The notes beneath the pieces are model-generated. The model searched no databases. It was not told the DNA's origin and saw only the letters and a list, made by a program, of their open reading frames with translations. A DNA stretch of 64,000 nucleotides from assembly GCA_044892525.1 (NCBI GenBank), contig CM097885.1, positions 21,516,001 through 21,580,000 of the forward strand, in the 5' to 3' direction. The stretch is from Schmidtea polychroa (Eukaryota). The position numbers and the translations under genes are program-made. This document shows, in pieces, positions 17,273 through 48,167 of this stretch. How positions within the stretch are numbered: position 1 is the first letter of the stretch; the number at the start of each line of letters is the position of its first letter.

Positions 17273-17290
17273 TGGGGGCTCAGCCGGGAT
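17273..17290 (+). promoter_or_regulatory. Primer-binding site complementary to the tRNA-Pro 3' end
   Basis: TGGGGGCTCAGCCGGGAT matches 16/18 of the classical tRNA-Pro PBS TGGGGGCTCGTCCGGGAT; it lies 8 nt downstream of the 5' LTR. Confidence 0.9.
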
Positions 17291-17989: not shown

Positions 17990-18472
17990 ATGGAATCAAC
18001 CGGCTACATTACAAAGAGACTCGGAAAATTCGTAGATTTAACACACAATTCGTTACAACGGCTAAATCGCAAAGCGGACCAGTTAATAAAAATCCAAGAT
18101 GAGATGAGCTTGAATCCAAGACCGCAAGCTGAGGAAATATGTATAATGATGAAAATAGCGACACCTAATGCAGAATTGACCACTAAAAGAGTTTATCAAC
18201 TTCAAAATTTACGATTAGATAATGCCAAATTTAACATCAAATGGCAGGAGATAATGATAAAAATGGAAACGATCGAGGAAGAAATTAAAGAAGCAATCGA
18301 ACATCAAGTTAAAGATTTTAGAAAATGCTTCATATGCAGAACCAATGAAATACGAGTAATGACGATTCCATGTGGTCATTTATGCTACTGCGAGAATTGC
18401 GCAGAGAAAATTAAACGATGCAACGTATGCGATACGAATGTTAGAGAGAAAATTGTAATATACCTCCCATAA
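17990..18472 (+). CDS. Coiled-coil plus C-terminal IAP-type C3HC4 RING protein (putative E3 ligase)
   Basis: CFIC...PCGHLCYCENC...CNVC at the C-terminus. Confidence 0.88.
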   Translation: MESTGYITKRLGKFVDLTHNSLQRLNRKADQLIKIQDEMSLNPRPQAEEICIMMKIATPNAELTTKRVYQLQNLRLDNAKFNIKWQEIMIKMETIEEEIKEAIEHQVKDFRKCFICRTNEIRVMTIPCGHLCYCENCAEKIKRCNVCDTNVREKIVIYLP

Positions 18473-30200: not shown

Positions 30201-33200
30201 AAAGAGGAAGATAGAGAAAAGACAGCCTTTACCATCGGAAAAGATTTATATCAGTTTAAAAAGATGCCATTTGGATTAACAAACGCACCTGCTTCGTTTC
30301 AGAGATGTATGAACTTTGTGACACACGGGATCAAACAATGTATGGTGTATATCGATGATCTGTTAATTTATTCAGGTACTTTCGAGCAACACTTAATCGA
30401 CATCAGAAACGTATTCATAAGACTGAAACAATGGAAGCTGAAATTGAAACCGTCAAAATGCGACTGGGCAAAGGAGAGAGTCACATTTTTAGGACACATT
30501 GTGTCGGCAAAAGGAAAAGAACCAGATCCGAGAAACGTTGAGAAAATAAAGAATTGTCCGATACCAAAAACCGTGACTCAGGTACAAGAATTTCTGGGAT
30601 TATGCGGATACTACCGCAAGTTTATCAAAAATTATGCAACTATCGCAAAACCAATTCAAGAACTAACAAAAAAAGATACTCCATTTTTGTGGGAAAGAGA
30701 ACAGCAAATAGCATTCGAATCGTTAAGAGATAAACTAATAGCCTCACCTATTCTAATACACCCAGATTTTAAAAAGCCTTTTCTACTAGCAACCGATGCC
30801 AGTGGATATGCATCAGGAGCTGTGCTAGGACAATGGGATGAGGAGAAACGAGAAAGAGTCATCGGATATTATAGCAAGACGTTCAAAAAGCACGAAAAGA
30901 ATTACTCGGTCACAGAAAGAGAAGCCTTAGCAATAATTCAGGCGATAAAACATTTCAAATATTTATTGTGGGGACACGAGATAATTATTACTACAGACCA
31001 TCAACCTCTAGTTTGGTTGGGCCAACACAAAGAAGCATCTAGCCGATTGATGAGATGGGCAATGCAGTTACAAGAATATTCCCCATACATCAAATTCAAG
31101 TCAGGAAAAGCAAACGCAAATGCAGACTGCATGTCGAGATTTGTATTTGAAGAACTCATGGATCATGACGTCAGACGAATATGCCTGATAATCGCGGAAG
31201 ATATCGATTTTACCAATCTAAAGAACGAACAAAAGGAAGACAATGAATTAAAACTAATAATTGAGTTCCTGGAAAAAAACGATATGAAAATATTCAACAA
31301 CGATGATCGACTAAAAGAACACATGGAGAAAAATCGTCACAGATATACGATCGAGAAAGGATGGCTATTGGTAATGGATGGCGACAAACGATTGATGTGT
31401 CTACCAGAAAGTAGACGGAAAGCAATTATGATTCAATACCACGATGGTAAATTGGGCGGACATATGTCAGCCAAGAAAACAGAAGCAAGGCTCAAACAGA
31501 AATATTACTGGCCAAATATGAGCGATGACGTGAAAGAATGGATAAAGAACTGCCTGATATGCGCAACCAGAAAAACAACGGGCAGTAAACTAAAGCCACC
31601 ATTGAAACCAATGCCGATACCGCCAGAACCGATGACAATGATTGCAATGGATGTAGTTGGACCACTACCAGAGACTAACAGTGGAAATGTGTATATATTG
31701 GTAATAACTGATTATCTGACTAAGTTCCCTGAAGCATTTGCGATGCCAGACCAGAAAGCACGAACGGTTGCAAGGATATTAGTGGAAGAGATCTGCTGCA
31801 GATATGGAACACCAAAACAAATCTTAACTGACCAAGGAACTAATTTCATGAGCGAGATAATAAATGAAGTGACAAATTATTTTAGAATTGCCAAATTGAG
31901 AACCTCACCATACCACCCGCAAACGAATGGTCAGACAGAAAGATTTAACGGCATACTAATAGACATGATGTCCAATTACGTGAGTAAACATCAAAAGGAC
32001 TGGGATGAATATATTAAGTTGTGTCTAATGGCTTATCGAATGTCAATACACTCAGCAACGAAAATGAGTCCGTTTAAACTCATGTATGGAAGGGAATGCA
32101 ACATGCCGATGGATCTCGAATACCAACCGCCAATCTCACAATATATGGAGATAGATGATTATGTGACAAAGTTCAAGGAGAGAATGCAAGAAATATGGAA
32201 AACCGCAGGGATGAACATCCGATTCAACCAAGAGAGTTATAAGGAATTACATGATAAAAAGAAGAACGTGCAAAACCATCAATTTAAAATCGGAGATTGG
32301 GTTATTATAGAAACACCCGAATTAATCCCAGGAACAGCAAAGAAATTACAACGTAATGGCAGAGGGCCATATGAAATCATCTATGTAAACGAGAACAACG
32401 CTAGAGTGAAGTTGGTTAACAATCCACTAATTAGACCCATTTATGTGAATACATGTCGATGCAAAGCAGTAGCGAAAACTGCCACTAAAGACCCAGAAAC
32501 AAGAAGGATAATCACGAGATCACAAACAAATGCCACAACGGAACCAGAAGTAAGCGGTAGATTAACTAGATCACAGACAAGACGAATATTCATGTTGAGA
32601 GGAGAAACAAGCAGCAGCGCCCATAAAGGAACTGAAGCAGAAAGCGAAGCTGACGCAATGGCAAGGAGCCAAGCAACATGGAATATGACAATAAAAATAG
32701 CACGAGAAATTGTACCAGAATGGGCCGATATAACCAATAAATACCAAGTATTGGGCAAACTAATGTTAGTAGCAGAAAGATATGCGAAAGGACGAAGATA
32801 TGCCGAAGGATTACAAATACCGACTCAAATATATGAACTAATCCGGAGATTACCAATCATGTTCCTAACAAGTGATTTGAGTAATAACTGGCCAATCCAT
32901 CATGCAGTGAAAGCAGGACAAGAAAAACGAGCTTTAGAGATTATACGAATAATGGAAAACTGCAAACAATCAACAAACGTCAAAAACAGTAAAGGAAAAA
33001 CTCCACTGATGAAAGCCATAGCAATAGGCGCGTCAAGAGATGTACTCAGAGAATTATTAAGAACGGGATCCACGCTGAAAGAAAAAGACAACAAACAACG
33101 AACCGTATTACGTTATGCCGTCAGGTCAAAAAGACCTAGTATAGTGAACTTTATCACAGGAAATGCAACAACCGAAGAAGCCGAGGTGTTGGGACAGAGC

Positions 33201-35348
33201 ATTGAACCAATTCTGGAAGCCATCAGAGGAAACTTAGACAGAACCGCAGCAATATTAATCAAATGGAAACAAAACGAATTAAGAGCGGAAGTAATTGATA
33301 TAAATCAATTCCAAAACAACGAAAATATCGTACTAAGAAGCGCCATATACTCAAGACCACCAATGCCAAAAACCATTAAAGCAATATTACAGAGAAATAG
33401 AACAGAATTGACAGGTAATTGGTGGGAATGCACAAAAACACATGCGATGAAAAAGCAACTAGAAATACTAGTGTGGGAATGGCACCGGAAACAACGGAAA
33501 TATCAAGGAACCAAAGAAGAACGAGAAAGTATCCACAACGACAAAAAAGAGATAATTAAAAAATACGAGGAGATGATCAAAGCAGCAAATGTCGAGGACG
33601 ACATTTTCAGGAAAACCCCGGGTGAGAGGAATGACGACGACGACGACGACGAAAGGATGGGGGATAACGATAACAACCCAGAGGAAAACGACAGAGAACA
33701 GAATCCGGAAGGCGGAGAAACAACGAGTGATGATGAGGAATTGGAAGAAGACGAAGAAGACCAATGTCGAGGTGAAGATCAAGGATTCGACAAAACGGAG
33801 AACAAAAAACGAAAGTCCCCACTACATAGCATAGTGTGTCGAAATCAAATCCAGCCAATCCTACTACAAAGAATATTTATAATATTAACATCCATCTGTT
33901 TAACAGAAACAAAAAATATAAGAATCGTAAGAGAAGCTTCCCAAGAAGGTGAAGCATTTATGATAAAAGTCAGTGATTACGACGGAAATGCCGTCGGAAT
34001 ATGTGTGCAACTAATGGAAGGAACAGGAGTAAGTTGTGATTTCAGATCGATAACAAAAGGAAAGATTTTTAGCAGCCAAAAAAGAGATCCCAGGCTATGT
34101 GGAGATTATGACATCTGTAGAGACATATCAACAGAGGAAATGGAGCTAGAAAGAGCCAACGAAACCGGAGTACATTTTCAACTCAACATTTTGGAAGAAG
34201 GTATCGAAATAGAAGATAAAGGGAGTCGATCAATTACACATGTATGCATCAGAGAAGACAGAGACATATGCATAATAACTGATATGACACAAGACCACAA
34301 ATTCTTCTGGGGAGAGGTCAAACCAAATACCCCTACTGTGGTATGCGCAGGAACACAAGGGATAGTAGTATGTAAAGGAACAAGAACTGCACCAAGAAAA
34401 GACAAGCCAAAGAGTATGGCAATGAAACAAGATCCATTGAGGGGGATAGCAACCAAGAAGCCAAACAAATCAGTTAGTACAAAAACAACAACAGAGCAAA
34501 ATCAAACCGAATTAATAACAACAACAACATGGATTAACGAAGTAATTAAAGACGAAAGACGGGAAGTGCAGATAACTATTAACCTCAACAAGAAAGGTGA
34601 AGAGGTAATTACAGTCAAAAACCAGGAAGGAGAACCAATCATAAGGATATGTGTAATGGATAAGACGGGAATAATCGACTGTACAACAACACCGATAGAC
34701 AAAGGTACAGACGTTAAAATGGAGACAGGGAAACGGAAAGAACGATACCAAGTATGTATCCTTAAGAAAGGAAGAGGAACCAGCGTATGTCAACCAATAA
34801 CTCGACAAAAACCCCAATTAATAAACATACCATGGATACCCCGAGATCAAGAAGGGGGAGAGAAACGGGAAAATCACAGTCACCTAACAGAAAAAGAGAA
34901 GGAACGATTACATCAAGCATTCAAGAAAATCAAAGCACCAGAAACAAATACCACAGGTAGTACAATATTAACGACAGAAAAAACAAATAATGGAACAACG
35001 ATCATCACAAAGATGATATGGATAACTAGCGCGATAGTAAGCACGATAATAGCGTTAGCAATGATTCAGTGGATAAGAACCACCAAAAGATGTAAACAAA
35101 AACCGAGAAACCAAAGAAAATGGCCCAAAGTGGAAAAATTTGAATACGGTATTCCAACAGAGAATCTGAATCTAGAAGAATACGAGGTGGTAGAGGATCC
35201 CGGATCCAGCGGATTGTGGATGTCGGAACTACCAAGAATACCCACACCGAACGAATGGACACACGAAGTCGATATATACCGAATAACGGACGAAAGATAT
35301 GGGGGAATGCGCACGCTGCATTCCGGCCCCATGGCGACACTGGTATAA
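21282..35348 (+). CDS. Giant single-frame Gag-accessory-Env-Pol-accessory polyprotein (~4,688 aa from the first ATG)
   Basis: Uninterrupted frame 21060-35348; first ATG at 21282; domains are listed separately below. Confidence 0.95.
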   Translation: MTDGIPNVTGLTDPPETSNVHVNIGEFREKFRGEPFDGNINQLETFIKEFEVYITICHWPDIVVRERIPLYLKGSAQDVYLEAKCDATKLRTWKEIKEFLIKTFGTEKEGNRKMLDFLHRKQKYNESNALYACELRRLAREAFDSNQPVPEDKIIAVFVDGMKREDIRATLGCRAPETLEEALKIANKCETYLTPIQVAAMTAAPAAPAATATTTNNQVNNANPVMNQFIPGSQQLFKTPQTRNQNNGGNIQNFTNNFRNNDINNRTCNICQRPGHWSNECYKARMCQKCGRRGHTENVCRGPMMSMSRGGTRTCYNCNQPGHMARECTMRTKPNQPGSNNPVQNTQINLMQEIEQLKDMILRIPTNNQQQRINMMQSTEEIRNQPSKQQQDQQRVEWQRLQNEEAREIQERWKQREANPGRINMMRLTNKEESHTAEQCVNNDGSEPIINKEIKTTKENEIDPRTELSSEEKIQLIKEFTKEEKERRQKRDESKDEPKSNEIVTKNRIQRVLLQKIEDRIKNENPTLTEEQIKEKVKEHWFRKNEWFEKKEPHTKAKINMLRQMRSDQTDQEDEKSEVSSLGGELFQSSEENNEPKTPPNSETPQSSEESENDDMKSMIEKDEEEIFEEILDTVTEIERNESYINELTYRKCLKLITQVYQCEGGIITAAWKDLATKYKEKLKEAGPDQYQVSIQHPEIQIQTIELKGTNTDELYNWVQEKMGTSHKNKQLYVDGYKVKIGIHLVDAMIWPNETNILTLEKTRDDDSVAEMFKKIQQVFNNEVEPELEKIERKIMKENQIILVKQAIDQTRKYINRLRERWPQLMKQFVKDVRDTEIMRFEDKRATELISKYGEYERTKCEHETIKIKVKLPNEEKQIIEVNPDCQVDELVQIIDQEIIQKARENSEDGMIEDVIIMYNRHMLERGDRTVIYELGIWENGAVINIIAMDEPSGGHKNATKTEQQIKRFQWGMRAKMDRIIDIYNHWLKDDKLKLAAFNDEDCKLIPWKKVWIESEARWDWEQQKLEPNWIDNIPEEIAAAWVREKPIDTYQDILPQEFQNELPSGEDEEIREPVRLAPFTWKIENWMEKIKSAKEEKITRLVSPPFYSGLGEYKMKLRIYPNGDGIGKGSYVSAFFVICKGNYDDKVPWPFNRKVTIAIEPLKDSLNRHKETLKPDPRSACYQRPTTSENIASGTPKLIRLSYIENEQSKFVKNNAIQIRVEVETEQEMNQRLNIPENQPRICMMRRRVSDSGHLPIDADADEEEAATLLEAQKCKELMEILQNGAKNRRRAVVELAKWIAESCKRIQNLRKIVKAIEEYRRVYVWYPEQFGEIIRKWKQQEWAENSPEKYQLKIFMPDCEPMEKEFYTTAKVREVKKRIPYELPFHLQHEGRSLDDDIEIGVTPLQGEIVNRLTVSKIAGRELRRREIKQKSSTQQPGSLDTPEVPNAVSEVTIETTGEDEILDELQEIVEAGEIMRASQSGDLFIDEGELTTDDLDGFVCAQRQPVETTEAETDLDNVERDANKDVTTTDEWSNWRVDPGATTSKDTTYNPPKRKETGTAMDRRTRGRPKTDKAEIEPKSKVQAQMEQVKTKMDKLSALVKQVKVKTSVREQGTRWINDLLANMLALANPDVKRVMRKDNIPTEAKQLWAVLKPIIMKIMDNKIRLTLKDPVELRLIVEHLLSRSEDQNRFLVGLAYLVYNVIGQYKKRMPKYNATGYEFTVTEIIKRSIEPYILEQGGWRSFIESTGKKDQTEMMQAKLRDLLTEFEGTININDPRASRKGMNAIITTILIWMMCIKGTESFAVYDCDNIKIHEKYSLKDTEDCKAANPRKLQTVMASVSYNVYQEADFIKTMVQECTVTRKIFAHHCGSSSHSTIIEPGLESTVILLSREECEEGFRSGRIHLRQGIEIAAEPGKIKTTRVYTAGRITKGDGTCETGTYTLNGQLVSGVVVIESYEAKLEKYQGYFDPDTQAMKKYPSCLASDRSCSTGMSTLVYHADQKVCRLMLLKTAIFEEIQGKVYSEPKGEAERRAMEELRARKGFREDVITSKLESEVTPTAIISKDDGIGMRFIKNKMVSKCDEMVISTNYKGIYLSRRTLANAVGRLSEKDVKLYLYANNKMDFLYHRGLTSTEKVYHDLLRNDCLLNKEILRTKLAMAITNPDNAIPLLPLQEGYFGRIVGEVMYTYQCKKIMARLPENPTIPRDKCANELEIIHEGKPRFVQAVTRIMNPVGFQPNLFNCSNAYGPMYEKEDGQWVQFPSKTIVVTPKKFGLTELTTELEFKPIDVSQSGLYTPKDLESARAHMLFPAHRQAILSNIVTISGGNNYGGSPNYELLLSPSHYQQATANMMKAMWGRFLVFGQMMAGILGIILIIQIVRVILTQMLACFDIYKRERKVNWKLAIGFLPFLAKTMVLHGHSKDIHRIKRLLKILTQMKGTDEEVGRKFKVIMRLEAERTQEKAKRTGKWKKWMNLRRDDDSDNDNDDFNDDDNNQGGAMLINKNTATWENEKMKPWGSPYSQTPYLQAPTNGPMRRPGTMRERIRMGTGRLPIPNIYPTAYEPNWAAMDPTMIKQAKSVEQEVETRTIAVLQTPAGPSLTITVEVNGIEMDAMIDTGANISAINMNMLPGRLWPCIEETTMDVITCSKQSIAVVGRVWSTIEYKGVKVTTYLAVIRQLSVSCIIGTDVMPELLKEIVIDLSSMKLKDKTGQICTMRTEVRCSEKMIIPARTQTICYVKVDNEAKGDMIFEPSQKFEKRRELPLAREIVSINEDNEIPINITNFDEEDKVIYENERLGKLTPMMNIELPEIKSEGADEKELWTIDSELLNKDEKEQLRQLLIEFKEIFAASDLELGTSDVTQHIIPLTDETPITLRPYRLAEAQKTVAEEEVQKMLDAGVIEPSCSPWQFPVVMVKKKDGTQRFCIDYRRLNAVTKRDTYPLPDINEMLQMLHGAAYFTSLDLKSGYWQIKVKEEDREKTAFTIGKDLYQFKKMPFGLTNAPASFQRCMNFVTHGIKQCMVYIDDLLIYSGTFEQHLIDIRNVFIRLKQWKLKLKPSKCDWAKERVTFLGHIVSAKGKEPDPRNVEKIKNCPIPKTVTQVQEFLGLCGYYRKFIKNYATIAKPIQELTKKDTPFLWEREQQIAFESLRDKLIASPILIHPDFKKPFLLATDASGYASGAVLGQWDEEKRERVIGYYSKTFKKHEKNYSVTEREALAIIQAIKHFKYLLWGHEIIITTDHQPLVWLGQHKEASSRLMRWAMQLQEYSPYIKFKSGKANANADCMSRFVFEELMDHDVRRICLIIAEDIDFTNLKNEQKEDNELKLIIEFLEKNDMKIFNNDDRLKEHMEKNRHRYTIEKGWLLVMDGDKRLMCLPESRRKAIMIQYHDGKLGGHMSAKKTEARLKQKYYWPNMSDDVKEWIKNCLICATRKTTGSKLKPPLKPMPIPPEPMTMIAMDVVGPLPETNSGNVYILVITDYLTKFPEAFAMPDQKARTVARILVEEICCRYGTPKQILTDQGTNFMSEIINEVTNYFRIAKLRTSPYHPQTNGQTERFNGILIDMMSNYVSKHQKDWDEYIKLCLMAYRMSIHSATKMSPFKLMYGRECNMPMDLEYQPPISQYMEIDDYVTKFKERMQEIWKTAGMNIRFNQESYKELHDKKKNVQNHQFKIGDWVIIETPELIPGTAKKLQRNGRGPYEIIYVNENNARVKLVNNPLIRPIYVNTCRCKAVAKTATKDPETRRIITRSQTNATTEPEVSGRLTRSQTRRIFMLRGETSSSAHKGTEAESEADAMARSQATWNMTIKIAREIVPEWADITNKYQVLGKLMLVAERYAKGRRYAEGLQIPTQIYELIRRLPIMFLTSDLSNNWPIHHAVKAGQEKRALEIIRIMENCKQSTNVKNSKGKTPLMKAIAIGASRDVLRELLRTGSTLKEKDNKQRTVLRYAVRSKRPSIVNFITGNATTEEAEVLGQSIEPILEAIRGNLDRTAAILIKWKQNELRAEVIDINQFQNNENIVLRSAIYSRPPMPKTIKAILQRNRTELTGNWWECTKTHAMKKQLEILVWEWHRKQRKYQGTKEERESIHNDKKEIIKKYEEMIKAANVEDDIFRKTPGERNDDDDDDERMGDNDNNPEENDREQNPEGGETTSDDEELEEDEEDQCRGEDQGFDKTENKKRKSPLHSIVCRNQIQPILLQRIFIILTSICLTETKNIRIVREASQEGEAFMIKVSDYDGNAVGICVQLMEGTGVSCDFRSITKGKIFSSQKRDPRLCGDYDICRDISTEEMELERANETGVHFQLNILEEGIEIEDKGSRSITHVCIREDRDICIITDMTQDHKFFWGEVKPNTPTVVCAGTQGIVVCKGTRTAPRKDKPKSMAMKQDPLRGIATKKPNKSVSTKTTTEQNQTELITTTTWINEVIKDERREVQITINLNKKGEEVITVKNQEGEPIIRICVMDKTGIIDCTTTPIDKGTDVKMETGKRKERYQVCILKKGRGTSVCQPITRQKPQLINIPWIPRDQEGGEKRENHSHLTEKEKERLHQAFKKIKAPETNTTGSTILTTEKTNNGTTIITKMIWITSAIVSTIIALAMIQWIRTTKRCKQKPRNQRKWPKVEKFEYGIPTENLNLEEYEVVEDPGSSGLWMSELPRIPTPNEWTHEVDIYRITDERYGGMRTLHSGPMATLV
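21384..22265 (+). other. gag: Gag capsid-like domain and three CCHC zinc knuckles
   Basis: PFDGN..F..EF, YLKGSA, TW..IKE, Q...ES...Y, FVDGM, P.TLEEA; knuckles CNICQRPGHWSNEC, CQKCGRRGHTENVC and CYNCNQPGHMAREC. Confidence 0.92.
24519..24956 (+). other. TRAF-type MATH domain inside the polyprotein
   Basis: FTWKIENW...SPPFYSG..YKMKLRIYPNGDG.GKGSYVSAFFVICKG.YD..VPWPF.RKVT. Confidence 0.92.
26637..28540 (+). other. Envelope-like glycoprotein (chuvirus G / class III fusion-like) with internal signal peptide and TM anchor
   Basis: Signal-like MNAIITTILIWMMCIKGTES, then AVYDC..YSL....C..VYQ..V.EC.V...HCG..SHS and a Cys-rich ectodomain, then W.RFLVFGQMMAGILGIILIIQIV. Confidence 0.75.
29080..32470 (+). 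other. pol: Pol: aspartic protease, RT, RNase H, integrase
   Basis: IDTGA (29130) and IIGTD; LDLKSGYWQ, MPFGL and YIDD (30348); TDAS, EREALA, TDH and NADCMSR; HHCC zinc finger (H..GH..CLIC), MDVVGP, TDQG and GQTERFN. All catalytic residues are present. Confidence 0.98.
32883..33270 (+). other. Ankyrin repeats (about 3-4) downstream of integrase
   Basis: WPIHHAVKAG, NSKGKTPLMKAIAIG...LLRTG, DNKQRTVLRYAV, PILEAIRGN. Confidence 0.85.
33858..35348 (+). other. C-terminal type I membrane protein module
   Basis: Signal-like RIFIILTSICLTET, paired-Cys beta-rich repeats, Thr-rich stalk, TM MIWITSAIVSTIIALAMIQWI followed by a basic stop-transfer and a tail. Confidence 0.7.
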
Positions 35349-35952: not shown

Positions 35953-36041
35953 GAGAAAAAGGAGTGAAATGTAAATAATCCTGTAAATAAATAGAGTTAT
36001 AATCAAGTAGAAATCCCAAGATTAAAAATCATCATTGTAGA

Positions 36042-37466
36042 ATGCAAAACAAAGCAGAGGAAAACCGGAGAGAAGCAGAGGAACAAAAGATTAACTATGA
36101 GTTGATGAGAAAATACCAAGCCGAGCCGGACGAGTTCGAAGAGAGATTATTATGTGCCGATACAGCATGTAGAAGATTATTAATTGGAGCAAGTCAAACT
36201 CGATGCGGGTGTAGATTGTGCCGAGGGTGTGATATAAGATTAGCCAGACTAAAGCGAGAAACTTGTCCAGGATGTGGAGAAGCATTTAAGTTGGTTCCCA
36301 CTGGTACGATACCGGATAGAGCAATGAACCGAGAAATCAGAGAAGTGAAAATAAGATGCACCCAAAGGTCATGCGAATGGACAGGCCGAGTAAAGGAGTT
36401 AAGAGCCCATACAGACGTATGCGAATATCTAGAATCGGAATGCGAAGCATGCACGGTAAAGTTTTTACGAAAAGAGAAAACCAAACATAAAGGGGAATGC
36501 AAAGCGCGAACGGAAAAATGCGAATTTTGCGGAGAAACTGCTAATTGGAGAGAAATCGAAATGGAACATCGAAACGCAGTAGAAAGACGGATTTGCGACG
36601 AATATACAGGGAAATGCCCAAACGAGTGTGGAGAAATTAACAACGTCAGATTAAATGAACATTGGGAGATATGCACGAGAAAAGCAATAAAATGCCCAAT
36701 GGTGACATTCGACTGTAGAGCACAATTACCAGCAGAAGAAATGAAGAAGCATGTGGAGGAGAATACATTCGAGCACATGCAAAAGATGATGAGAGCAATA
36801 GAGTTAACAGCAAGAGCAATTGAAGACGTCAAAGACGAACTCAAATCACATAAAATCATGATAAAAGAAATGCTGAGCTCACAGGAAAGCTTCGAAAATA
36901 CGAGAGAAGCCGTAACACAAAGGATGTTGAAATTAGACGACAAATTAGTCGAAGTAACTAAATTACAAACCAAATGGACTACAAAGGAACTGACAACAGA
37001 GGAACTACCAATACTACCATACATGTGGAAAATCCAAGGAATAACGGAAATAATGGAGCAAGCAAAGCAAGGAATCCAGACAACGATAGTGAGCAAACCA
37101 TTCTACGCCAAGAAACATGGATACAAGATGAAATTGAGATGGTTTCCAAATGGTGAAGGAAAGTTTAAAGATCGGTGCATGTCCATATATATGCAAATTT
37201 GTAAAGGAGATTTTGACGACCTAATAGCATGGCCATTCCGACATCGATTAAAAATATCTCTCTTAGGAGCAAAAAAGACACATATAATGTGTTTTCGAGC
37301 ATCCAGTCCAGCAGGGAATAAACCGATTACAGAGGTTAATCCTGCGGTAGGAGTAGCAGAGTTTATGCAGCTATACCAATTTAACGAAGGGTCCTACATA
37401 GAAAAGGACACTATATTCTTCCTAATCGAACTAGATGAGGAAGGACCAACAATAGAAATACGATAG
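36042..37466 (+). CDS. Full-length TRAF-like protein (RING, zinc fingers, coiled coil, MATH), intronless
   Basis: C..C..CGCRLC..C..CPGC RING; C...CEWTG....L..H...C TRAF zinc fingers; YMWKI...SKPFY...GYKMKLRWFPNGEG...KGDFDDLIAWPF. Confidence 0.95.
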   Translation: MQNKAEENRREAEEQKINYELMRKYQAEPDEFEERLLCADTACRRLLIGASQTRCGCRLCRGCDIRLARLKRETCPGCGEAFKLVPTGTIPDRAMNREIREVKIRCTQRSCEWTGRVKELRAHTDVCEYLESECEACTVKFLRKEKTKHKGECKARTEKCEFCGETANWREIEMEHRNAVERRICDEYTGKCPNECGEINNVRLNEHWEICTRKAIKCPMVTFDCRAQLPAEEMKKHVEENTFEHMQKMMRAIELTARAIEDVKDELKSHKIMIKEMLSSQESFENTREAVTQRMLKLDDKLVEVTKLQTKWTTKELTTEELPILPYMWKIQGITEIMEQAKQGIQTTIVSKPFYAKKHGYKMKLRWFPNGEGKFKDRCMSIYMQICKGDFDDLIAWPFRHRLKISLLGAKKTHIMCFRASSPAGNKPITEVNPAVGVAEFMQLYQFNEGSYIEKDTIFFLIELDEEGPTIEIR

Positions 37467-37606
37467 ACGGATAGAAGGGAACTGTAAATATTTTGTAAAA
37501 ACGATGTAAAGTAAATATAAAGTTATTGTATACAGTAAAGTAACGTGCCAAAACCATAAAAATTAGAAAAAGAAAATGTAAAAAGAAATGATGAAATTTA
37601 TTATAG

Positions 37607-38785
37607 ATGATTAATCAAGAGAGACCGAATATCCGAAAGAAAACGATCACAATGAGAGAGGAAGAGGACAATATGTCACCTAGAGAAAGAGTGAAGGATG
37701 CGGAAGTCAGCAAAACAAAACCAAGTAGTTACGCATATTATCGGAGAATGGGAAACGATTATAATTGGGTACACGAAAATTTGAAACTGGGAAATAATGA
37801 ACAATTCAGATGTGAGAACCAGAGATATCTGTCATTTGAACATCAGACCATTTTTACCAAGGAACAAAGCCGAGCGCTAGCACGCGACGGATTTTTCTTC
37901 TCCGGAAAACCAGAGATACCCGATCAAGTAACATGTCGTTTCTGTAAAGGGAAATTAGCAGAATGGAAAAAAGGAGAACACCCAAAGGAGGAACATCGTA
38001 GACGATTCCCAACTTGTCTATTCGTACTGGGATTTGATGTACACAACAAACCGGAAATCAAATACGAAGCCTTGGAGAAATTGAAAACTGAAGACGAAAA
38101 AGGAGGGAAAATGAGCATCGCGATAACCAGAATCGTTGATGAGTATGTTCCAACTTGTGAAGGGGAATTCCTCACGCAAATAGCAGATAATAGAATGAAA
38201 ACGTTCGGAGATGATACGAGAGGACCTGAATTAGCAATAAGAGGGTTCTACCTAACAGAAAATCAAATACTAAAGTGTGAAAGATGCGAAAGCCAACAGA
38301 GATTACCGGAAGAAGGCATACCAGAAATTAGACATCAAGCATGGTGCCTATATCACAACGAACAAGAAACCGAATATCCGGAAGTACTAGTAACAGAGGA
38401 AGAGGTTGACGAAGTGGTAGACAAACCCAACATGTGCAGAGCGTTGAAAGCAGCCGGAATAGGCACGACAAGGGCAAAGAACATGATTAGAGAGAAACTA
38501 CAGAAAAATGTACATATACCAACAACAACGTACGATATGATCAGAGCGATAACCCAGTATAGAGAAAAACCTGAAACAAAAATAAAAGAAGAATCAATGG
38601 TCAAAACAGCTATCTTACGAGATATCAAATGTACTATGTGTTGGGAGAGGAGTGTAGAAGTTATTCATATGCCATGCGGACATTTGATCGCATGTGCCAC
38701 ATGTAGTAGAAAAGTAAAGGAATGTCCGATGTGCAGACAGAGGATTGCGCAGCGAATCAAAGGATTCCGCTACGCCGATCAATAA
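37607..38785 (+). CDS. Inhibitor of apoptosis (BIR, degenerate BIR, C-terminal RING), intronless
   Basis: RYLSF...LARDGFFF...DQVTCRFC...W..GEHP..EH....PTC; second RMKTF..LAIRGFY..C..C..H...C; CTMC...PCGHLIACATC...CPMCR. Confidence 0.95.
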   Translation: MINQERPNIRKKTITMREEEDNMSPRERVKDAEVSKTKPSSYAYYRRMGNDYNWVHENLKLGNNEQFRCENQRYLSFEHQTIFTKEQSRALARDGFFFSGKPEIPDQVTCRFCKGKLAEWKKGEHPKEEHRRRFPTCLFVLGFDVHNKPEIKYEALEKLKTEDEKGGKMSIAITRIVDEYVPTCEGEFLTQIADNRMKTFGDDTRGPELAIRGFYLTENQILKCERCESQQRLPEEGIPEIRHQAWCLYHNEQETEYPEVLVTEEEVDEVVDKPNMCRALKAAGIGTTRAKNMIREKLQKNVHIPTTTYDMIRAITQYREKPETKIKEESMVKTAILRDIKCTMCWERSVEVIHMPCGHLIACATCSRKVKECPMCRQRIAQRIKGFRYADQ

Positions 38786-38867
38786 CAAAAATTAAAATTC
38801 CGTGTATAAAGTGTAGATAATAAATGTATGAAATAATAGTGGTAGTAATAGTGTAATTATTTAGACA

Positions 38868-40466
38868 ATGAATAAAGAATCACAAACCTATGTGGAAACC
38901 GAGATGCAACAACTCGAACAGTACAAATCCATCATACAAACATACGAAGCAGAAAGAGTAAAGAGAGAAATAGAAATGTACAAAACCATGTATGAGAAAA
39001 AGCAACAAGAATTAGAAGCGGAGAAGGCGGAAGCACTAGCAACAAAGGAGGAGTGGATGAAACAGGTAGAGGAATTAACCGAGGATGTGAGAAATACCTC
39101 AACATACCAAGAATTGGAGGAAGAGCTCTCGAATTTACGAACTCAGCGGATTATGGAGATAGTTGGGTTATGCGGAGAGATAATAATGCAGAAGGCACAA
39201 ATTAGGGAAGCAAAGGAGCAATACGAGGAGGAACAGCGTAAAACGGAACGAATAAAACTACAAGCGCAACAATGGAAACTAAAGTACGAAACCCTCCAGA
39301 CAAGGCAGAATGATAGTCACGAACATCAAATACGGAATTACAAGGCCGAACTAGAAGAAGTAAAGGGCAAATGCGCAATGATGAAAGAAAAATGGGAAAG
39401 ATGCAAAAAGACCCTAAACGAAGTCAGAGGGCAAGGGAGGAGAACACCGCATAGAGAACCAATTGTTAGAGATAACGTATTAGAGCGAATTAACACACAA
39501 ATAAAGATACAAGCCCAGAAATGGAAGTATAAATACCGAGGAAGTCAAACTCAAGTGCTATATTGGAAAATCAGTAGCAAGGAACAACTGCGATTACGAA
39601 AAGCAGACCAAGAATTTTACGAAACAAGAGCTGCACAGCGAGAAGAAGAGGAAGTAGAGTGGAGAAAACGACAGCAGAAAACTGAGGAAACCGAAAAGTG
39701 TCTCAAGCATCAAGCCCGAAAATGGAAAAAGAATTGGAAAGAGACCAAAGAGGAGTTAAGACAGTTACCAATAAAACTGATGGAAAGAGACGAATTTAAA
39801 ATATGGGAAACGATAGAAAACCAAAAAGATGAGATCAGCCGATTGAGTAGAGAACATAGAATCAAGACGCGGATCAGCGACGGTAGACAGAGAATCATAA
39901 AGAAACAGACTCGAGAAATAAGAAGGTATGAATTCCAGGAAAAGAGATGGGAACAACAATTGACAGACCAAGATCGACAGATCCGACAATTACAAACTGA
40001 AGTGGAAGAAGCCAATCAAGAGATGAACGGATATAAAGGTATGTACACCCAAAGGGATGTGAATTGGAAGCACCAGATTGAGCTTAATGCGAAATATAGA
40101 GAGGAGTGCGACAAGACAATTCAACAAACCAAACAGGAAACCGAGATAATAAAACGATGCTTCGAAGAAAATGAAGCAAATTTGAGAGCGGAAATTGAGA
40201 AACTAAAAACGCTCGAAAGAACCCAACGATTGGAAGAGGAATTAAACGAAATGATAGAAAACGAAGGTAGATTAACGTTTTTATTGGATGAGGAAATAAA
40301 CATCTCAACGGAACTACGAGAGGAAATAGATCGGTTAAGGAGACAACCACCAATATTATTAATGCCACTCTACCCGTTCCCGTTGCAAGTGCCACAGCCT
40401 GCCGAAGTCACCACAGATGAAGGCTTCGATGAAAATAACGAACAAAATAACGCAACATGGATTTAG
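38868..40466 (+). CDS. Accessory 532-aa long coiled-coil protein
   Basis: E/K/Q/R heptads throughout, a repeated QA.KWK motif and a Pro-rich C-terminus. Confidence 0.8.
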   Translation: MNKESQTYVETEMQQLEQYKSIIQTYEAERVKREIEMYKTMYEKKQQELEAEKAEALATKEEWMKQVEELTEDVRNTSTYQELEEELSNLRTQRIMEIVGLCGEIIMQKAQIREAKEQYEEEQRKTERIKLQAQQWKLKYETLQTRQNDSHEHQIRNYKAELEEVKGKCAMMKEKWERCKKTLNEVRGQGRRTPHREPIVRDNVLERINTQIKIQAQKWKYKYRGSQTQVLYWKISSKEQLRLRKADQEFYETRAAQREEEEVEWRKRQQKTEETEKCLKHQARKWKKNWKETKEELRQLPIKLMERDEFKIWETIENQKDEISRLSREHRIKTRISDGRQRIIKKQTREIRRYEFQEKRWEQQLTDQDRQIRQLQTEVEEANQEMNGYKGMYTQRDVNWKHQIELNAKYREECDKTIQQTKQETEIIKRCFEENEANLRAEIEKLKTLERTQRLEEELNEMIENEGRLTFLLDEEINISTELREEIDRLRRQPPILLMPLYPFPLQVPQPAEVTTDEGFDENNEQNNATWI

Positions 40467-40498
40467 TCGAAGGGAGATGTTGCCTGTAAATAAGAATG

Positions 40499-40544
<46 letters not shown>
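40499..40544 (+). repeat. 46-nt poly(A) tract between accessory ORFs
   Basis: Pure A run starting 33 nt after the stop at 40466. Confidence 0.9.
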
Positions 40545-40546
<2 letters not shown>

Positions 40547-40629
40547 AAAACCAAATAAAAATTACAAAACCAAAAAATTCAGAATAAAAAGAAGACAAAA
40601 GGAAATATGATATGTATATTTTTGTAGAT

Positions 40630-41397
40630 ATGAATTATTTAAAAGAAAGAGAATCAACGAGTAACGAAGGAAAGTCAAACGACCAACCTGAACAAAACCA
40701 GGATATGATACCAATCAAACAAGAACCGATGAAATATTATAGCAATAAATGGAGAGTCAGCAAGAAGTTGTTCAAATTAAAGATTGCAAATCAAAATGTA
40801 GAGATTACGAGATTGAGGCAGCATATTGTTCAATCAAGACGATTAATAAACACTGTCAAACAAGAAATTTTGAGGGAAATAAAGGAATCGAAACGAAAAG
40901 AGACAGAAAATAAAAACCTGAGACAAGAGATAGTAGAGTTGAGAGCTCAGGCAGTAATCGAAGATTATTGGAAATCAGAAACAAGGAAGTTGAAAAAGAT
41001 TGTGAATATCGACCAAGTCTATATCGAGCAGTTAGAAGCACAATATGCTTATGCAAAAACAAGAGTGCGAGAAAGTAAAAAAGTCGAGAAGAGAAATGTA
41101 AAACTCAAGGAAGAGATCAAGGAACAAAGAGAGGAAACAGAAAAACAATGGAAGTTGAAAGAAAATTACCGGAGAATCTTAAATCAAAAACGACGAAGCA
41201 TGCAAGCATTGCAGACGGCAATAACCATCAAGCAGAGAAAATGGAAAAGTAAAGAGAAGCAATTACAAGAAATACCAGAATTAAAGAGACAGTTGATAGC
41301 AACGCAACTCGAAGTAATAAGAATGAACGAGTTGAGCAAAAGACGAGCACCTGAACCTCCCGTAAAATTAAGGGATGAGGTCGGTGGCTCCCAATAA
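40630..41397 (+). CDS. Accessory coiled-coil protein (probable start 40630), probable paralogue of 38868-40466
   Basis: ORF 40612-41397; the second ATG follows ttttgtag; KW..IANQNVEITRL resembles KW..IENQKDEISRL. Confidence 0.75.
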   Translation: MNYLKERESTSNEGKSNDQPEQNQDMIPIKQEPMKYYSNKWRVSKKLFKLKIANQNVEITRLRQHIVQSRRLINTVKQEILREIKESKRKETENKNLRQEIVELRAQAVIEDYWKSETRKLKKIVNIDQVYIEQLEAQYAYAKTRVRESKKVEKRNVKLKEEIKEQREETEKQWKLKENYRRILNQKRRSMQALQTAITIKQRKWKSKEKQLQEIPELKRQLIATQLEVIRMNELSKRRAPEPPVKLRDEVGGSQ

Positions 41398-41473
41398 ATG
41401 AGACAAAATAACCGTGTAAATAAATTGTAAATAAAGCCAAGTAATTATTATTAACATATATGTATATGTAAAG

Positions 41474-42460
41474 ATGAGAAGCCTAATCGTGATGATGATT
41501 ATAATGACAATGCCAAAAATCCTGCAAGCAGAAGAATCAATGATCAGATGCCAGAAAGAATACCCATATCGCAGAGAAGATAGTACATGTAGTAGCTTTA
41601 AATCGATCTGCGAAAAACCCAATGAGGAATGCGAACAAATCAAGTTACAATGTTCGCAATGTCCACAAACAACTGAAAGTTCGACGGAAGTGCAAATGGC
41701 TCAGACAATAAAAACAATGTTAGAACAAGAAATGAAAGTTATCAGAACCCAGATAGCAACATTAGCCAAACAATGTCAAAGTCAGAAATCAAAGAGAGAA
41801 TCCCAAACAGATCCAGCCGCAATGAGAATGATGGTAATAATATTAGAGGAAATAAAACAACAGGTAACAGCAACCGCCTATGGACGTTCAAGCAATTGCG
41901 AAACAGTAGTAAAATCTTTGGAGGAAATGAAAGGAAAAATAACTTCCATCATCAAAGAGGAACCCAGCATTAAAAATGAGGTAACGAAAACCTTGAAAGA
42001 AATGACAAGGGAAATCCTAACTACCATAAACAAAAACCCAACGAACTCCGAGAAGATGATTAAAACCCTTGAGGCAATAAAGAAAGTTGTCACCTCAGAA
42101 GAAAACAAATTCAATAAGCCCGAAAAATCAGAAACGGCGGATACAACCCAATTAAAAGAAATTATGAACAAACCCAAAGTAATAGAACCGAGAGAGTCTG
42201 AATCCCTCACAATATTGATCCTATTAGCGGCGAGCCTAATGATAAACATCACCGTACTGAGCCTGATTGCACTCAAACCCAATTCCAGTAAAGAAAGAAA
42301 CAAAACCCTCAAACTAAAGGAACAATCAAGAAGTATTCGTATCCCAATGGAAGAACAGCTAGTCCAAACAACGAACCAACCAAGCTACTTCAAATCTTCC
42401 CCAAACATTGAAACCAGAGCCGTCATCGAGACGAGATCCCGAACAACCGAATTTTATTAA
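41474..42460 (+). CDS. Accessory type I membrane protein (signal peptide, 6-Cys head, helical stalk, TM)
   Basis: N-terminal MRSLIVMMIIMTMPKILQA; Cys cluster; three K[ST]L.E[MI] helical repeats; TM LTILILLAASLMINITVLSLIAL. Confidence 0.8.
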   Translation: MRSLIVMMIIMTMPKILQAEESMIRCQKEYPYRREDSTCSSFKSICEKPNEECEQIKLQCSQCPQTTESSTEVQMAQTIKTMLEQEMKVIRTQIATLAKQCQSQKSKRESQTDPAAMRMMVIILEEIKQQVTATAYGRSSNCETVVKSLEEMKGKITSIIKEEPSIKNEVTKTLKEMTREILTTINKNPTNSEKMIKTLEAIKKVVTSEENKFNKPEKSETADTTQLKEIMNKPKVIEPRESESLTILILLAASLMINITVLSLIALKPNSSKERNKTLKLKEQSRSIRIPMEEQLVQTTNQPSYFKSSPNIETRAVIETRSRTTEFY

Positions 42461-45400
42461 TGTGACATCACGACAGTATAAACATTTCATGACATTATAA
42501 AACATTATCAAACAATCATGATTTCAAAGACTGAGACTGATTATGACTAATAACATTGATTCTTGAGCATGATAATTTTATTTTTGTGTGGACCGACCTC
42601 GGTCGTTCTTTTTCTTCATCTTTCAACCCATCCGTAGAATGTAGTATAATAGTAGCCTTTTTATGTATGTGGGTATTGAGGTCACGACCCTGTAGCTCGT
42701 AGACCCAATTTGCATGTAGGCACTTGTAATATAGTGCAAGTATTCTGAAAAATAATTTTCTTCATCTTGTGATTTAAATTGCGGGTCGCAATTTTATGGG
42801 CCCCCGAGTGTTTTATGTTGGGCTAGAACTGACTTCTAGACCCAAACTTGAATTGTGACTGAAAGGTGCAGGTACACAACATGCAAAAGCAAGACGTTTA
42901 GCTAAATATTAAAATTACATCAAATAAACAATATTAACTAAAGGAGAAAGCAACAAAAACATAAACAAAGAAATTAAACAAAATTATACAAAAGCAAGAA
43001 GTGATGCAAAAATCTAACTCAAAAATAACCAAATAAACACAGAGTTACAAAAAACAGACTCGAATAACTTAAAAGACGATAAAAACAGTAAAACATTCCA
43101 GAAAAACCCAGAACATTCTATAAAAATGGCGATGACCATCACAAAAGTCATCTAGAACAACAAAAGTTAAGGAAAATAAATAAATTAGTATTAAAAATAA
43201 TAAATCTTTAAAAGAAATTCACAAAACATCAGTTAAAATAAAAATTAAATTAAAAATAAAATAGAATGTTCTGGAACCGTTCCAAATCCATCATGGACGG
43301 CAAATTAACGAAAAATAATTAAAAAATAAAAATATAAAAATAAAAACAAAAATTATGGCACAAAAATTGTCATTAAAAATAGCAAAATCGCTAAATAGAA
43401 AATTCTGGAATAAAAAGAATTCGAGTTTGTTTTAATGCATCAATACATACACGTGTACTAAATAGGTATATATACTGACACGTTTCAGTCACAATCAATC
43501 ACTTTTATGCCAAATTTTTGTGACGAAATTTCCAAAATCGATAGTAAGCATTGATCTTTATTTGTATATTAATTGTTTAATTATATAGATGGTATTTTAA
43601 ATTTATTTTTGCTTAAAATTTTTTGCGATGTATGAGTGATCAACGGCGTACTGGTATTCCTGCGTCGTTGTTCAGTCCTGCATCCAATTTATTAAAATCG
43701 TTATTAACAGGACATGCAGACACGCATTATCATTATTATAGTGATATTTATTATATGATTTCTTTTTGTTCGGGTCAGCCGGAGGTCGAACTACTTCATG
43801 GTCCTGCCATGGAGTTAGGTCGAGGAAACCCTCCGCCTGACTCTTTGTATTTATTCAAGGTCAACCGTAAATGGTTGACTTAGCACACAACACTAAGGTT
43901 TGTAGAAGTGGTCACAGTGGGGCCATGGAAGCAATATTCTTCCCGACTTTCGTTTAATACACATGAAAAATCCACATTCAAAATCATAAACAACGACTCC
44001 ACACTAAGGTCCTAAATTGAGTAGAGCTCATACCTAAACTTACACAATTCTGCAAGCACATTAATGTAGTTGGTTGATCAATAATAATATTTTGGTACAC
44101 TTGGACATATGCCGAATTAGGTTTGGTAATAGGAGCCCATGGTAATTGGAATAATAGAAATGGTAAAATTCTTCGGCCTATGTCTAAGTAGAGCTTAAAT
44201 TTGGATAGACCTGTGAATAAATCACCGACTTAATGAACCCAACGTAAGGGAAAAAGTTATAAATTTAAAAGAATCCCGAATCTAAATTCTCACTGTAACA
44301 TATTCCTAAAGGTATAAATAATTGATTATAACTTTTATAAATAACTATAATAGCTTGGAGATAATTATATTGATAAATTATAGACCTAAAACCGTAAATT
44401 ACTGAATATAAAACTACCAACTATAAATTAAAAACTTAAATTTCTAAATTGTAGACTTTAAAAGTGTAAAGTATAATCATAAAGTCTAAAATACCGAATA
44501 TAGTATTATAAGTTATAAACTATACAACTATGGATCAAAAATCTAAACTGTAGATCATAAAAGGGCAAATCATAACGATGAAGTCTGAAATGTAAGAGCG
44601 TAAAATGTGGAATATAAATTGTCAGCAAAAACTATATAATCATAAAGTAAAAATCTAAATTTCTAAATAGTAGACTATAATTGTATAAATCATAACCATT
44701 AAGTCGAAAACATAACGTCGTAAAATATTGAACAAAAAATTTAAACCATATAATCATAAATCAAGAATCCAAATTTCTAAATGGTAGACCATGAAACTAT
44801 AAATCTGAAAATAGAAAATTAGGAAGTAAAAAATATAAAATGGTAAAATGTTAAATAAACAATTTATAAATTATAAAGTGTATGATGAGAACTTCTAAAG
44901 TATGAATTTATAAACTGTAAGATAAAAAATTGAAAATCGTAGACGAAAACCTGTAAAGTGCAAAATGTAACCTTCGAACTCATAAAATATGAATCCCTAA
45001 ATTGTGAAAGCCAAAATACGAATGGTAAAATATAAAGTTATATTATCACTATTATTATTAGTGTTGCCATTATCATTATTACTATTATTATTGCTATTAT
45101 TGTTCTTATTGCTATCCTTATTGTTCTCATTATTATTATTATCATTATTGTTATTATGACTATTACTATTATTATTATTACCACTACGATCATTTGTTAT
45201 CCTCGTTATCACCATTTTTACGGTTATGATCATAATTAGTATTACTTACTAGGAAAGCAAAAAATCAATTATTGATTTTTTCCCCATATCTAGATTTGGA
45301 GTCAATTCTTTTGCCCAATAAAAACGTTCCTAACTGAAAATCTATATTTAGCAACACCCCCCCCCCCAGAGAAACCTTAAGGAAAAATTCAAGACGGGGC

Positions 45401-46127
45401 TATGACAATCAAGAGTTTCCAGGAGATGGTGAGGATGACTCCGGCGAACCATGCAATTGAATAAATAAGCCATAATTCGCAGAGATTTACCTACATACAG
45501 AATACAAATATTCCCGAAAAATTTCCAATTTTCGGCGAGGGACAAATTGCGGGTCCAAATCAAATATTGGGCATGAAATGTCATTCCCTGGGAAGAACTA
45601 TGGGAAGACTACTCCAAGCTAATATATTCCCCTTACTCGATCGAGGTTCCTAATGTTATCGCCTAAAAATTAAGGAAGTAAAAAAATCAAATAAATTACT
45701 TGCATGTAGAGCAAACCACTCATAACGAGCACAACCGAAGGAAAGGTAAGCAGACGAAGAGCTTAGTTCGTTGCTAGTACCTGTCGCCCCAGCGTGCCCG
45801 AATTTAGTGGCCTAAAAATGACGATCTAAAAAAATTCACATTTTATTAACATATAAATTAAAATTTATAAATAGTAATTAAAATTGCCACTCGGTGGTAA
45901 GCAGGATTTTGAATGGAAATGATTGATTTAAACAAACGAATTTTGACGAAATTTTTTTTTTGTGTTTGTTTTGATAAAGTAGGAAATCTTATTCCACTGC
46001 TCCTAAGCTTATAGATGTTAGTCTTAAAATAAAATATTTTTTTAAAAGGGAAAAAGGGTCAACAAAATCTTGTGGTTGACGTCGTATCTCAATCAGCATA
46101 GAGGGGCTTGATTATTATTTTGTAGAA

Positions 46128-46493
46128 ATGTCCTACTCTGACAGCGATAGCCACGAAGAAGCCGACCGACAGATGCTTACCAGACTCCGTACACGGTACA
46201 TATGGCACCGTATCCATGATTGGAATCGGGGTTTGGACCTCGACAACTTTGGCCCAGTAATCAGGAGTGGGCCGGAGCCGGACGCTCCGGCGTGGGTAAA
46301 AACAGAGCCCACAAACGATTTTTTGCAAGAGGCCCGCGACCGAGCGGCCATCGAGGTAGAAGCAGCTCAGATGCGACTCAAGAAGATCGAGCTACAAATC
46401 CAAGCAGAAAAAGAGGGAAAAACCGTGGAGGACCTAGAAGAGGCCGAGGCAACCCCGCGGAAGAGGGGAAGGCCTCGCAAGCGACTGAACTGA
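46128..46493 (+). CDS. 3' LTR copy of the AT-hook ORF
   Basis: Translation identical to 15822-16187. Confidence 0.7.
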   Translation: MSYSDSDSHEEADRQMLTRLRTRYIWHRIHDWNRGLDLDNFGPVIRSGPEPDAPAWVKTEPTNDFLQEARDRAAIEVEAAQMRLKKIELQIQAEKEGKTVEDLEEAEATPRKRGRPRKRLN

Positions 46494-46702
46494 CTCGTCG
46501 TCAAAATTTTGTTTTTGCAAATTAACATTCAGTTGCGATTTTATTAAACTTTGATTTTAGTGATAATTATTTCAGTCCTTTTAATAAATCATCTTGTGTA
46601 TTGCGTGCTTAACATCCGAAACTATGTTTATTTATAATATTGATTTTATTTTATAATTGAATGAATAGTATGCTGCAAGAATATAATCGTTGAATTTATC
46701 TA

Positions 46703-47173
46703 GTGTTCAGACTATTGGAAAATCTGCGAAGAGATAGGGCAGAAGCTCAAAAACAGTCCGAGGAGCTCCGCATACGAGTAGACAAGCTCAAGGGACGGTG
46801 CCGGGAACTAGAAAGCACCTGGTTTAGTCCCGAGGATATGAAAAAGAAGGTGGCGCAGGTCCTTCAACTGCAGTCTCAAGCCGCGCAGGATCAGATGGAG
46901 ATCCGGGCACTGAAGCTCCAGCTCCGCGCGCTAGAAACCGAGCGAAATGAACAAGTAGTTCACGGAGCCGCCATAAGCCAAATCCGGCCGTTGACCGTGG
47001 AACTAGCAGCAATATACCCCCCGGCCGCGAAAGAGAAACCCAAAAGAAAGCGGTTAGGCCGAAATATTCGGGAAAAATTGAAGAAAGCTAGACTGGCCGA
47101 ATACGAGCGACAAGCAAATTCGTCACTAGCAGCTGCGACGGAATTGGCCAGTCCTACCAATAAGCCTGTTTGA
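46703..47173 (+). CDS. 3' LTR copy of the coiled-coil ORF
   Basis: Translation identical to 16397-16867. Confidence 0.6.
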   Translation: MFRLLENLRRDRAEAQKQSEELRIRVDKLKGRCRELESTWFSPEDMKKKVAQVLQLQSQAAQDQMEIRALKLQLRALETERNEQVVHGAAISQIRPLTVELAAIYPPAAKEKPKRKRLGRNIREKLKKARLAEYERQANSSLAAATELASPTNKPV

Positions 47174-48167
47174 ACTTATATTCGGTTTTAGGCGTTTGTA
47201 GTATTTTTATGTATTGTGGTAGTCTTCAAATAATATGTTCCTTGTTAACATACTGCACGTTTTGTAGGGATAAAATAATGACTAGTACAGTTTATGATTG
47301 TCTGGGAAATGAGAGTTTGTGCATAAGATTGGGAAAACAATTTTGATAAAGGGACCTGAGAAATCGGACACACACCTCCTATCGGTAGTCCGTGAACCCA
47401 CGGAGTACTCGACAACTATAGTGCTTTGATGCGCTCACTTTTTGCGAGTACTCAACCCTTGGTACAGTACCAACGTTGATCACTCAACGGGTACCAAGCG
47501 GAAAAACAATGTTGTATTTTGGGTTACGCTGGTAACAGCACTCAATCATTCAACCACCAGTAACCCACCAATAGTCATTGCACAATTTCAAAATCTTTAC
47601 TCAATTTAAAGCATTAGCAATTCAAATTTCTACCAATCAAACTGTATATTAAACAATTGCACATCTGGTCGCTGAAACGAATTTTTTACCATTTTTATTT
47701 CGATATAAATTTTCAATAGGACCAACGTAAAGCTAGAAGGCAGGCGAATGCAGATAGACAAAGGCCAAGGAGACAAAACGTGAAACAAACGGCAAGCTCA
47801 AAGGAAAACTGAAACTGTGGATGAGTATTATGCCAGATTGGAAGCTTAACAGAGAAGAAACACGAAACTCAAACTGAATAGCCGATGGATTAAAATCTTC
47901 AATTAAGTGCTGCCCAAAATTTTCACTTTCATTTCATACGTAACTATATTCAATTTCTTTGCTAAATATAATATTCTAAAATATTTTATAAATATTTTTA
48001 AGTATATTTTATTAGATTAATCAAGCAATTTTAAAATATACTTATTTGATTAAAACTTTCAAGAAATTTTAATAAAAATATGAAAGATAATTTGTTTAAA
48101 TAATACAAGAATACTAAAAATCTTTCATATATTTTTAAAATAATTTTAATTTCAAAAATTTTAATTC

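Follow-up and report, generated by a model that had tools for sequence, protein, structure and literature searches.

Polypurine tracts (PPTs) are treated as near-universal in retroviruses and LTR elements and are used as such by annotation tools. A plant survey reports that 'most' elements have a PPT (PMC6317226), and the trematode element PwRn1 has one (PMC2582038), while how reverse transcriptase (RT) picks its PPT is described as largely unknown (PMC3185511). The giant retrotransposon described here resembles the PPT systems of retroviruses, Ty3, Ty1 and Tf1 in having a short conserved segment that abuts the 3' LTR, a T-box upstream of it and high predicted hybrid stability (PMC3185511, PMC5371799, PMC10085805). 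It differs from them in composition, since known PPT primers are all purine or contain a single pyrimidine (PMC3185511), whereas the corresponding slot here holds 5-8 purines in 15 nt together with a run of C.

The closest described element is Burro/GYPSM1 of planarians (PMC6431247), a family whose member Burro1 is highly expressed upon loss of PIWI (PMC8532177). The words 'PPT' and 'polypurine' are absent from the available part of the Burro account in PMC6431247. Our literature search found neither a PPT-less Burro nor the hairpin reported below, the original Burro description, which may cover the ends of the element, lying outside that search.

A complete Burro-type element

We analysed a stretch of 64,000 nt from Schmidtea polychroa (the window; contig CM097885.1, positions 21,516,001 to 21,580,000 of the forward strand), to which all coordinates refer unless another locus is named. 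It contains one complete LTR retrotransposon of 35061 bp (12510-47570), organized as follows.

12506-12509, + strand: left TSD (ATAG)
12510-17264, + strand: 5' LTR, 4755 bp, TG...CA, 99.98% identical to the 3' LTR (one mismatch)
17265-17272, + strand: LTR-PBS spacer, 8 nt
17273-17290, + strand: PBS, 18 of 18 nt complementary to the 3' end of the host tRNA-Pro(TGG), including CCA
20973-35348, + strand: open frame of 4791 aa, stop to stop
36003-42460, + strand: region of accessory ORFs
36003-37466, + strand: accessory ORF, TRAF-zinc-finger/MATH
37607-38785, + strand: accessory ORF, BIR-RING
42816-47570, + strand: 3' LTR, of which only the first 9-10 nt are common to the four families compared below
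47571-47574, + strand: right TSD (ATAG)

The long frame carries zinc knuckle, MATH, fusion glycoprotein, protease, RT, RNase H, integrase and ankyrin domains, and three further ORFs of the accessory region have no firm family. The PR-RT-RH-IN order, the direct TG...CA LTRs, the short TSD and the tRNA PBS are those of Ty3/gypsy elements (Metaviridae). Within these, the element is a Burro-type giant gypsy retrotransposon, an assignment made by the layout described for planarian Burro/GYPSM1 (PMC6431247): both exceed 30 kb, both encode Gag, MATH, PR-RT-RH-IN and ankyrin in a single polyprotein of about 4800 aa (4791 aa here, 4873 aa there) with the fusion glycoprotein in frame between gag and pol, and in both a BIR domain lies inside an accessory ORF. 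A Pfam scan of the element found none of the BCL2-like, Smc, SUMO-like and dUTPase-like motifs listed in the available account of Burro (PMC6431247).

The element is recently active, high-copy and envelope-bearing. LTR pairs are 99.8-99.98% identical, 4-bp TSDs flank all four full elements examined, and the RNase H and integrase motifs are present on inspection by eye. Since all 115 RT matches scored, which comprise the best candidates only, are 100% identical, the family is young.

Several other features of the locus were recorded. Just after the PBS, 7 nt (17313-17319) are complementary to positions 49-55 of tRNA-Pro, like a primer activation signal; this 7-mer was not found in families B1-B3. 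The LTR contains an open frame of 159 aa (16388-16867) and the 5' leader a RING-finger frame of 160 aa (17990-18472). Between two accessory ORFs lies a 47-nt purine run, nearly all A (40498-40544), which could be the poly(A) relic of a captured mRNA. The tRNA-Pro genes of this genome form long tandem arrays with a 475-bp unit (L032, near 130.9 Mb), with 2212 pattern matches in the genome.

More distant relatives were also found. A set of metagenomic polyproteins (P0039, P0048, P0053, P0060-P0062, P0065, P0066 and P0068) joins a fusion glycoprotein domain to pol; they are about 50% identical over RT-integrase, and the members included in trees branch as sister to Burro. At one Burro-like locus (L163) the sequence ends before the LTR. 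A decayed Burro-like env-pol stretch, 46% identical to the pol of the window, lies between 674-bp inverted repeats that are 91% identical (L323, 4283-4948; L325, 9300-9973). It has at least 40 related copies, no LTR pair was found around it, and it may be carried by a DNA transposon.

The junction before the 3' LTR has no polypurine tract

Because the ORFs lie on the + strand, 42776-42815 is the true position of a PPT. Three features occupy it.

42776-42794, + strand: perfect hairpin with a GG-containing loop, its 7-bp core kept in four Burro families
42792-42795, + strand: T4 run, placed like the T-box or U-box upstream of PPTs, invariant in 19 of 19 aligned junctions
42797-42809, + strand: GC-rich core GG-N-CCC-SGAGT in the PPT slot, candidate plus-strand primer

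The arms AAATTGCG (42776-42783) and CGCAATTT (42787-42794) enclose the loop GGT (42784-42786), and TATGGGCCCCCGAGTGTTTTA (42795-42815) separates the hairpin from the LTR. A preliminary description of this locus had reported both the 8-bp hairpin and a missing PPT, and both observations hold. A perfect 8-bp inverted repeat with a 3-5-nt loop occurs in 0.6% of 3000 random 45-nt stretches of the window and in one of 3000 shuffles. Only 5 of the last 15 nt before the LTR are purines, and within the last 30 nt the longest purine run is 3 and the best 10-nt window holds 5. A T-box is present upstream of the slot while a purine tract abutting the 3' LTR is absent, the longest run being 3-4 nt in the four families. 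For comparison, runs of 6-12 were seen at eight of nine other gypsy junctions (the ninth, L243, is treated below), and in a small gypsy element from this genome the run measures 11.

The junction is identical in all 30 copies fetched, which were the top-scoring ones, and among the matches listed 25 of 27 plus-strand PBS sites, matched by hand, have a hairpin junction 10-28 kb downstream. A loose hairpin pattern gave 1311 matches in the genome against 141 for a control pattern. Viral contigs searched with the motif pattern yielded no match. Fifty-five distinct junction contexts, collected with a hairpin-shaped pattern that misses junctions of other shape, have purine runs of 3-6 in all tallied types. 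The PPT is absent from the 3' LTR junction of this Burro-type element family-wide, which makes a non-canonical plus-strand primer, as the preliminary description proposed, likely.

What the slot shares with PPTs is predicted stability. By a nearest-neighbour estimate against the AT-rich background, few stretches of the internal region should form a more stable RNA:DNA hybrid than its best 13-mer, which falls in the top 0.03-2%, as do true PPTs.

Four families share a 40-nt island

Three further families with a tRNA-Pro PBS (B1, B2 and B3) were compared with that of the window (A). Their LTRs, of 1.6-4.2 kb, cannot be aligned with the LTR of the window, and their TSDs are exact 4-bp repeats. 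All three keep a 7-bp hairpin with a GGN loop, the T4 run and GG-N-CCC-SGAGTG. The 40-nt island before the 3' LTR is 82-93% identical between families, against 38-68% in eight flanking 40-nt bins, and identity rises to 90-100% between the four in the first 10 nt of the LTR. Families A and B are 90% alike in RT-RNase H and thus represent one lineage, not four independent origins.

Family B1 (L068-L069) is high-copy, with a 12-kb internal region, 1.6-kb LTRs and a gag match. It shares with A, B2 and B3 the PBS, the island and a few ORF pieces, and is likely non-autonomous; the copy examined has no pol match and yet keeps both PBS and island, as would be expected of a needed cis signal. Within Burro the stems are invariant save for one double change in a single B1 copy (L361, near 1490-1510 from the reverse-strand start), where both sides of a stem pair have changed and the hairpin is still perfect. 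Mutation of an ordinary PPT in a single copy is rejected, as the PPT-less junction recurs across copies and all four families; the comparison that the preliminary description called for has uncovered no ordinary PPT in the other copies. Of other candidate families, E falls within an LTR of the opposite strand and G and D have no LTR pair that could be found; all three were left out.

The LTR-PBS spacer is 7 nt in B1-B3 (L068, L073, L078) and 8 nt in the window element, whereas relatives outside Burro have 1-2 nt where it could be read. A spacer of 7-8 nt predicts a long right-end extension of the cDNA and hence unusually long trimming by integrase.

The family comparison bears on where the plus strand could start. 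Priming at a purine tract farther upstream, in which case the island would be the end-processing or integrase signal for trimming a long extension, is improbable. Candidate tracts exist: the internal region of family A holds 107 all-purine 11-mers with at least 4 G, of which five are common to A, B2 and B3. None of these is common to B1, so that no all-purine 11-mer unites the four families, and the distant tract that the preliminary description had set against its own reading becomes less likely. In the 2 kb before the 3' LTR, moreover, B1 and the others have only the island in common, and the exact 4-bp TSDs would require the removal of hundreds of bases. We know of no precedent for trimming on that scale from a cDNA end.

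The families also bear on the tRNA. The preliminary description noted that the junction mirrors the PBS and suggested a tRNA-Pro-like primer end. The mirror is real in family A, where GGGGGC occurs on both and 10 of 20 ungapped positions agree, but GGGGGC is missing in three of the four families (it is found in A only, on the reverse strand), CCA is lacking, and no more than 6 nt match the 3' end of the tRNA; the suggested primer end is not borne out. As the other three families lack the mirror, it is highly improbable that a second tRNA-Pro, or a fragment of one, anneals to the minus strand and primes the plus strand, even though 6 nt in family A exactly match the tRNA 3' end and 8 nt in B1 the variable loop and T-stem: these matches of 5-8 nt hit different parts of the tRNA in different families, and L243 combines a similar slot with a different PBS. 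As with the bipartite PBS of Ty3 (PMC5371799), contact between the primer tRNA and a conserved element close to the 3' LTR is conceivable in principle. Here, however, the 5' PBS is complete (18-20 nt) and the complementarity between island and tRNA-Pro is 5-6 nt, with no single site in all families. Second-tRNA or bipartite-PBS priming was thus rejected for want of a conserved match to the primer tRNA near the 3' LTR. Another candidate was discarded on similar comparisons. Primer translocation as in hepadnaviruses relies on a direct repeat common to the RNA 5' end and the plus-strand start, and a 12-nt repeat at 15238 in the LTR has no counterpart in the LTRs of B1, B2, B3 and C and is put down to chance.

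Folding of the island was examined on both strands. In minus-strand DNA the small hairpin is the favoured fold in all four families. In RNA it is not the lowest-energy fold of B1-B3, where, as in a 46-nt stretch of the window, the G-rich loop instead pairs with the C-rich core. This raises the possibility that the RNA refolds into an extended hairpin or a pseudoknot, comes off the hybrid, is spared by RNase H and serves as primer through a short 3' tail, a course of events that would account for the origin of the C-run, perhaps twice if L243 is counted. The third loop base and its partner change together among B1/B3, B2 and A, in keeping with such pairing, but among 100 matches listed seven copies of two repeated variants carry mismatches in the loop-core helix. 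The folding z-score is strong only in B1 (-4.5), helped by B1's own flanks, and that of the window's 71-nt stretch is 0.68. An Rfam scan gave five weak matches, none over the motif and all far below cut-off, and a paired tail of 3-8 nt would be a weak primer. We regard priming by a refolded RNA as quite unlikely.

The hairpin precedes ordinary PPTs in other gypsy elements

A screen of 199 loci (198 from outside and L327 from this genome) for an LTR pair around an RT match yielded 27 distinct elements, retaining L306, L308 and L311, which look miscalled. Nine of the 27 have, 18-45 nt ahead of the 3' LTR, a perfect stem of at least 5 bp capped by a GG loop; the same test is passed by 2.1% of 8400 random windows and 2.0% of 8400 shuffles. 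Eight of these nine (L504, L505, L507-L509, L511, L512 and L525) have an ordinary PPT. They resemble Burro in the GG-loop hairpin and its distance from the LTR, the stem base lying 21 nt away in the four Burro families and 17-23 nt away in the eight outside elements with a perfect stem; they differ in having a G-rich PPT, short LTRs and, where read, PBS spacers of 1-2 nt. The stems themselves differ freely, with up to four pair types per position and 47 of 55 possible pairs Watson-Crick against a shuffled mean of 24; none of 20000 shuffles reached 47, a contrast that is an upper bound because the set was chosen for hairpins and kinship was ignored.

The GG-loop hairpin may be a cis element common throughout this part of the gypsy group. 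Its presence with different stems before ordinary PPTs in eight elements shows that it is not a substitute for the PPT and is not peculiar to PPT-less elements, which amends the preliminary reading. Plant gypsy elements reportedly have a similar hairpin ahead of the PPT, so an earlier sighting of it is possible. In the tree, Burro and the hairpin-bearing elements are not firmly joined (supports 84-89), and the deep branches are weak; Burro probably inherited the hairpin, which would then predate its loss of the PPT.

The ninth hairpin bearer, L243, is a single copy from an unrelated host and has a C5 run in place of the G-run (12577-12610 of that locus). Its ORF is intact, its LTRs are 99.6% identical, it has a 4-bp TSD, and its PBS is unlike that of Burro. 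Since L243 groups with the PPT-bearing L504 and L505, away from Burro (SH-aLRT 99 in a quick unrooted tree that carries no clade test), it may represent a second, independent loss of the PPT.

Alignment with these elements also gives grounds for reading the slot as a PPT that has shrunk, the primer ending in a short purine-rich GGAG or GAG plus UG (about 42806-42810), the C-run serving as a clamp and the hairpin doing a separate job such as binding Gag or RT. GAGT sits where the true PPTs of L507, L508 and L525 end and is nearly invariant in Burro, a conserved loop on variable stems would suit a protein site, and PPTs can be short and without a common consensus (PMC3185511). On the other hand, the longest purine run of 3-4 nt is too short to stay paired alone, and the upstream GG-N-CCC is as conserved as GAGT. 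A shrunken PPT is on balance unlikely.

A proposed GC-rich RNA primer placed by a hairpin and T-box

Transposition with exact TSDs and exact ends means that some primer must give a precise left end, and the only conserved sequence at the position of plus-strand start is the island. We propose that a GC-rich RNA remnant in the PPT slot primes the plus strand, positioned by the hairpin and the T-box, and give this reading a probability of roughly 0.55; it draws on the exact ends, the island, the hybrid stability, the T-box, the distance of the hairpin and published data on pausing.

According to this model the base of the RNA hairpin would make the RT pause during minus-strand synthesis. The RNase H site of the enzyme, trailing by 13-18 nt, would then lie close to the edge of the LTR, and a cut there would free the 3' end of the primer. 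At its 5' end the primer would reach no farther than the AU-rich box and the folded hairpin, and its G+C content would keep the remnant (about 42796-42808) on the DNA, allowing it to survive RNase H and act as plus-strand primer. Integrase would then trim a left extension of a few bases, as it must for the right extension of 7-8 nt. Purine bias would be a second cue, lost by Burro, with the structural cue kept. The polymerase-RNase H site spacing of HIV is about 18, and a stem base 17-23 nt from the LTR, with a few untrimmed bases allowed for, fits spacings of this kind.

Several published observations are in line with these steps. In Ty3 the two sites lie about 13 bp apart, and each RT fits its own PPT (PMC5371799); pausing at hairpins raises RNase H cutting (PMC3187697); the HIV PPT is marked by high hybrid stability (PMC2665208); and a U-box or T-box upstream matters for priming in several elements (PMC10085805). 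Against the model, HIV primers other than the PPT perform poorly, and nucleocapsid and RNase H act to suppress them (PMC2665208). The near-invariance of the stems within Burro, the close kinship of the four families and the RNA folding of B1-B3, where the small hairpin is not the most stable form, also count against it.

Copies of the primer can remain at cDNA ends in Tf1 (PMC11042837). Genome searches for trapped 2-LTR junctions (0 of 47 matches) and for left-end remnants (0 of 11), run without a positive control, gave none; L365, L387 and L418 were rejected as left-end remnants because they look like internal deletions, and a further candidate, L416, is an old copy.

In a wider form of the proposal, which we advance tentatively and with less confidence than the GC-rich primer itself, the hairpin would act as a ruler, placing the RNase H cut about 20 nt downstream of itself, and would be the main determinant of primer choice, purine bias having been dropped at least twice, in Burro and in L243. 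If this is true, a structural cue of a wide gypsy group had stayed hidden behind the PPT.

Both the element and the replication step are familiar; the sequence that serves the step is unexpected. With its variable stem, fixed loop and fixed distance, the role of the hairpin is open to direct experiment, and an active element that lacks a PPT offers a natural test of the true requirements of plus-strand priming.
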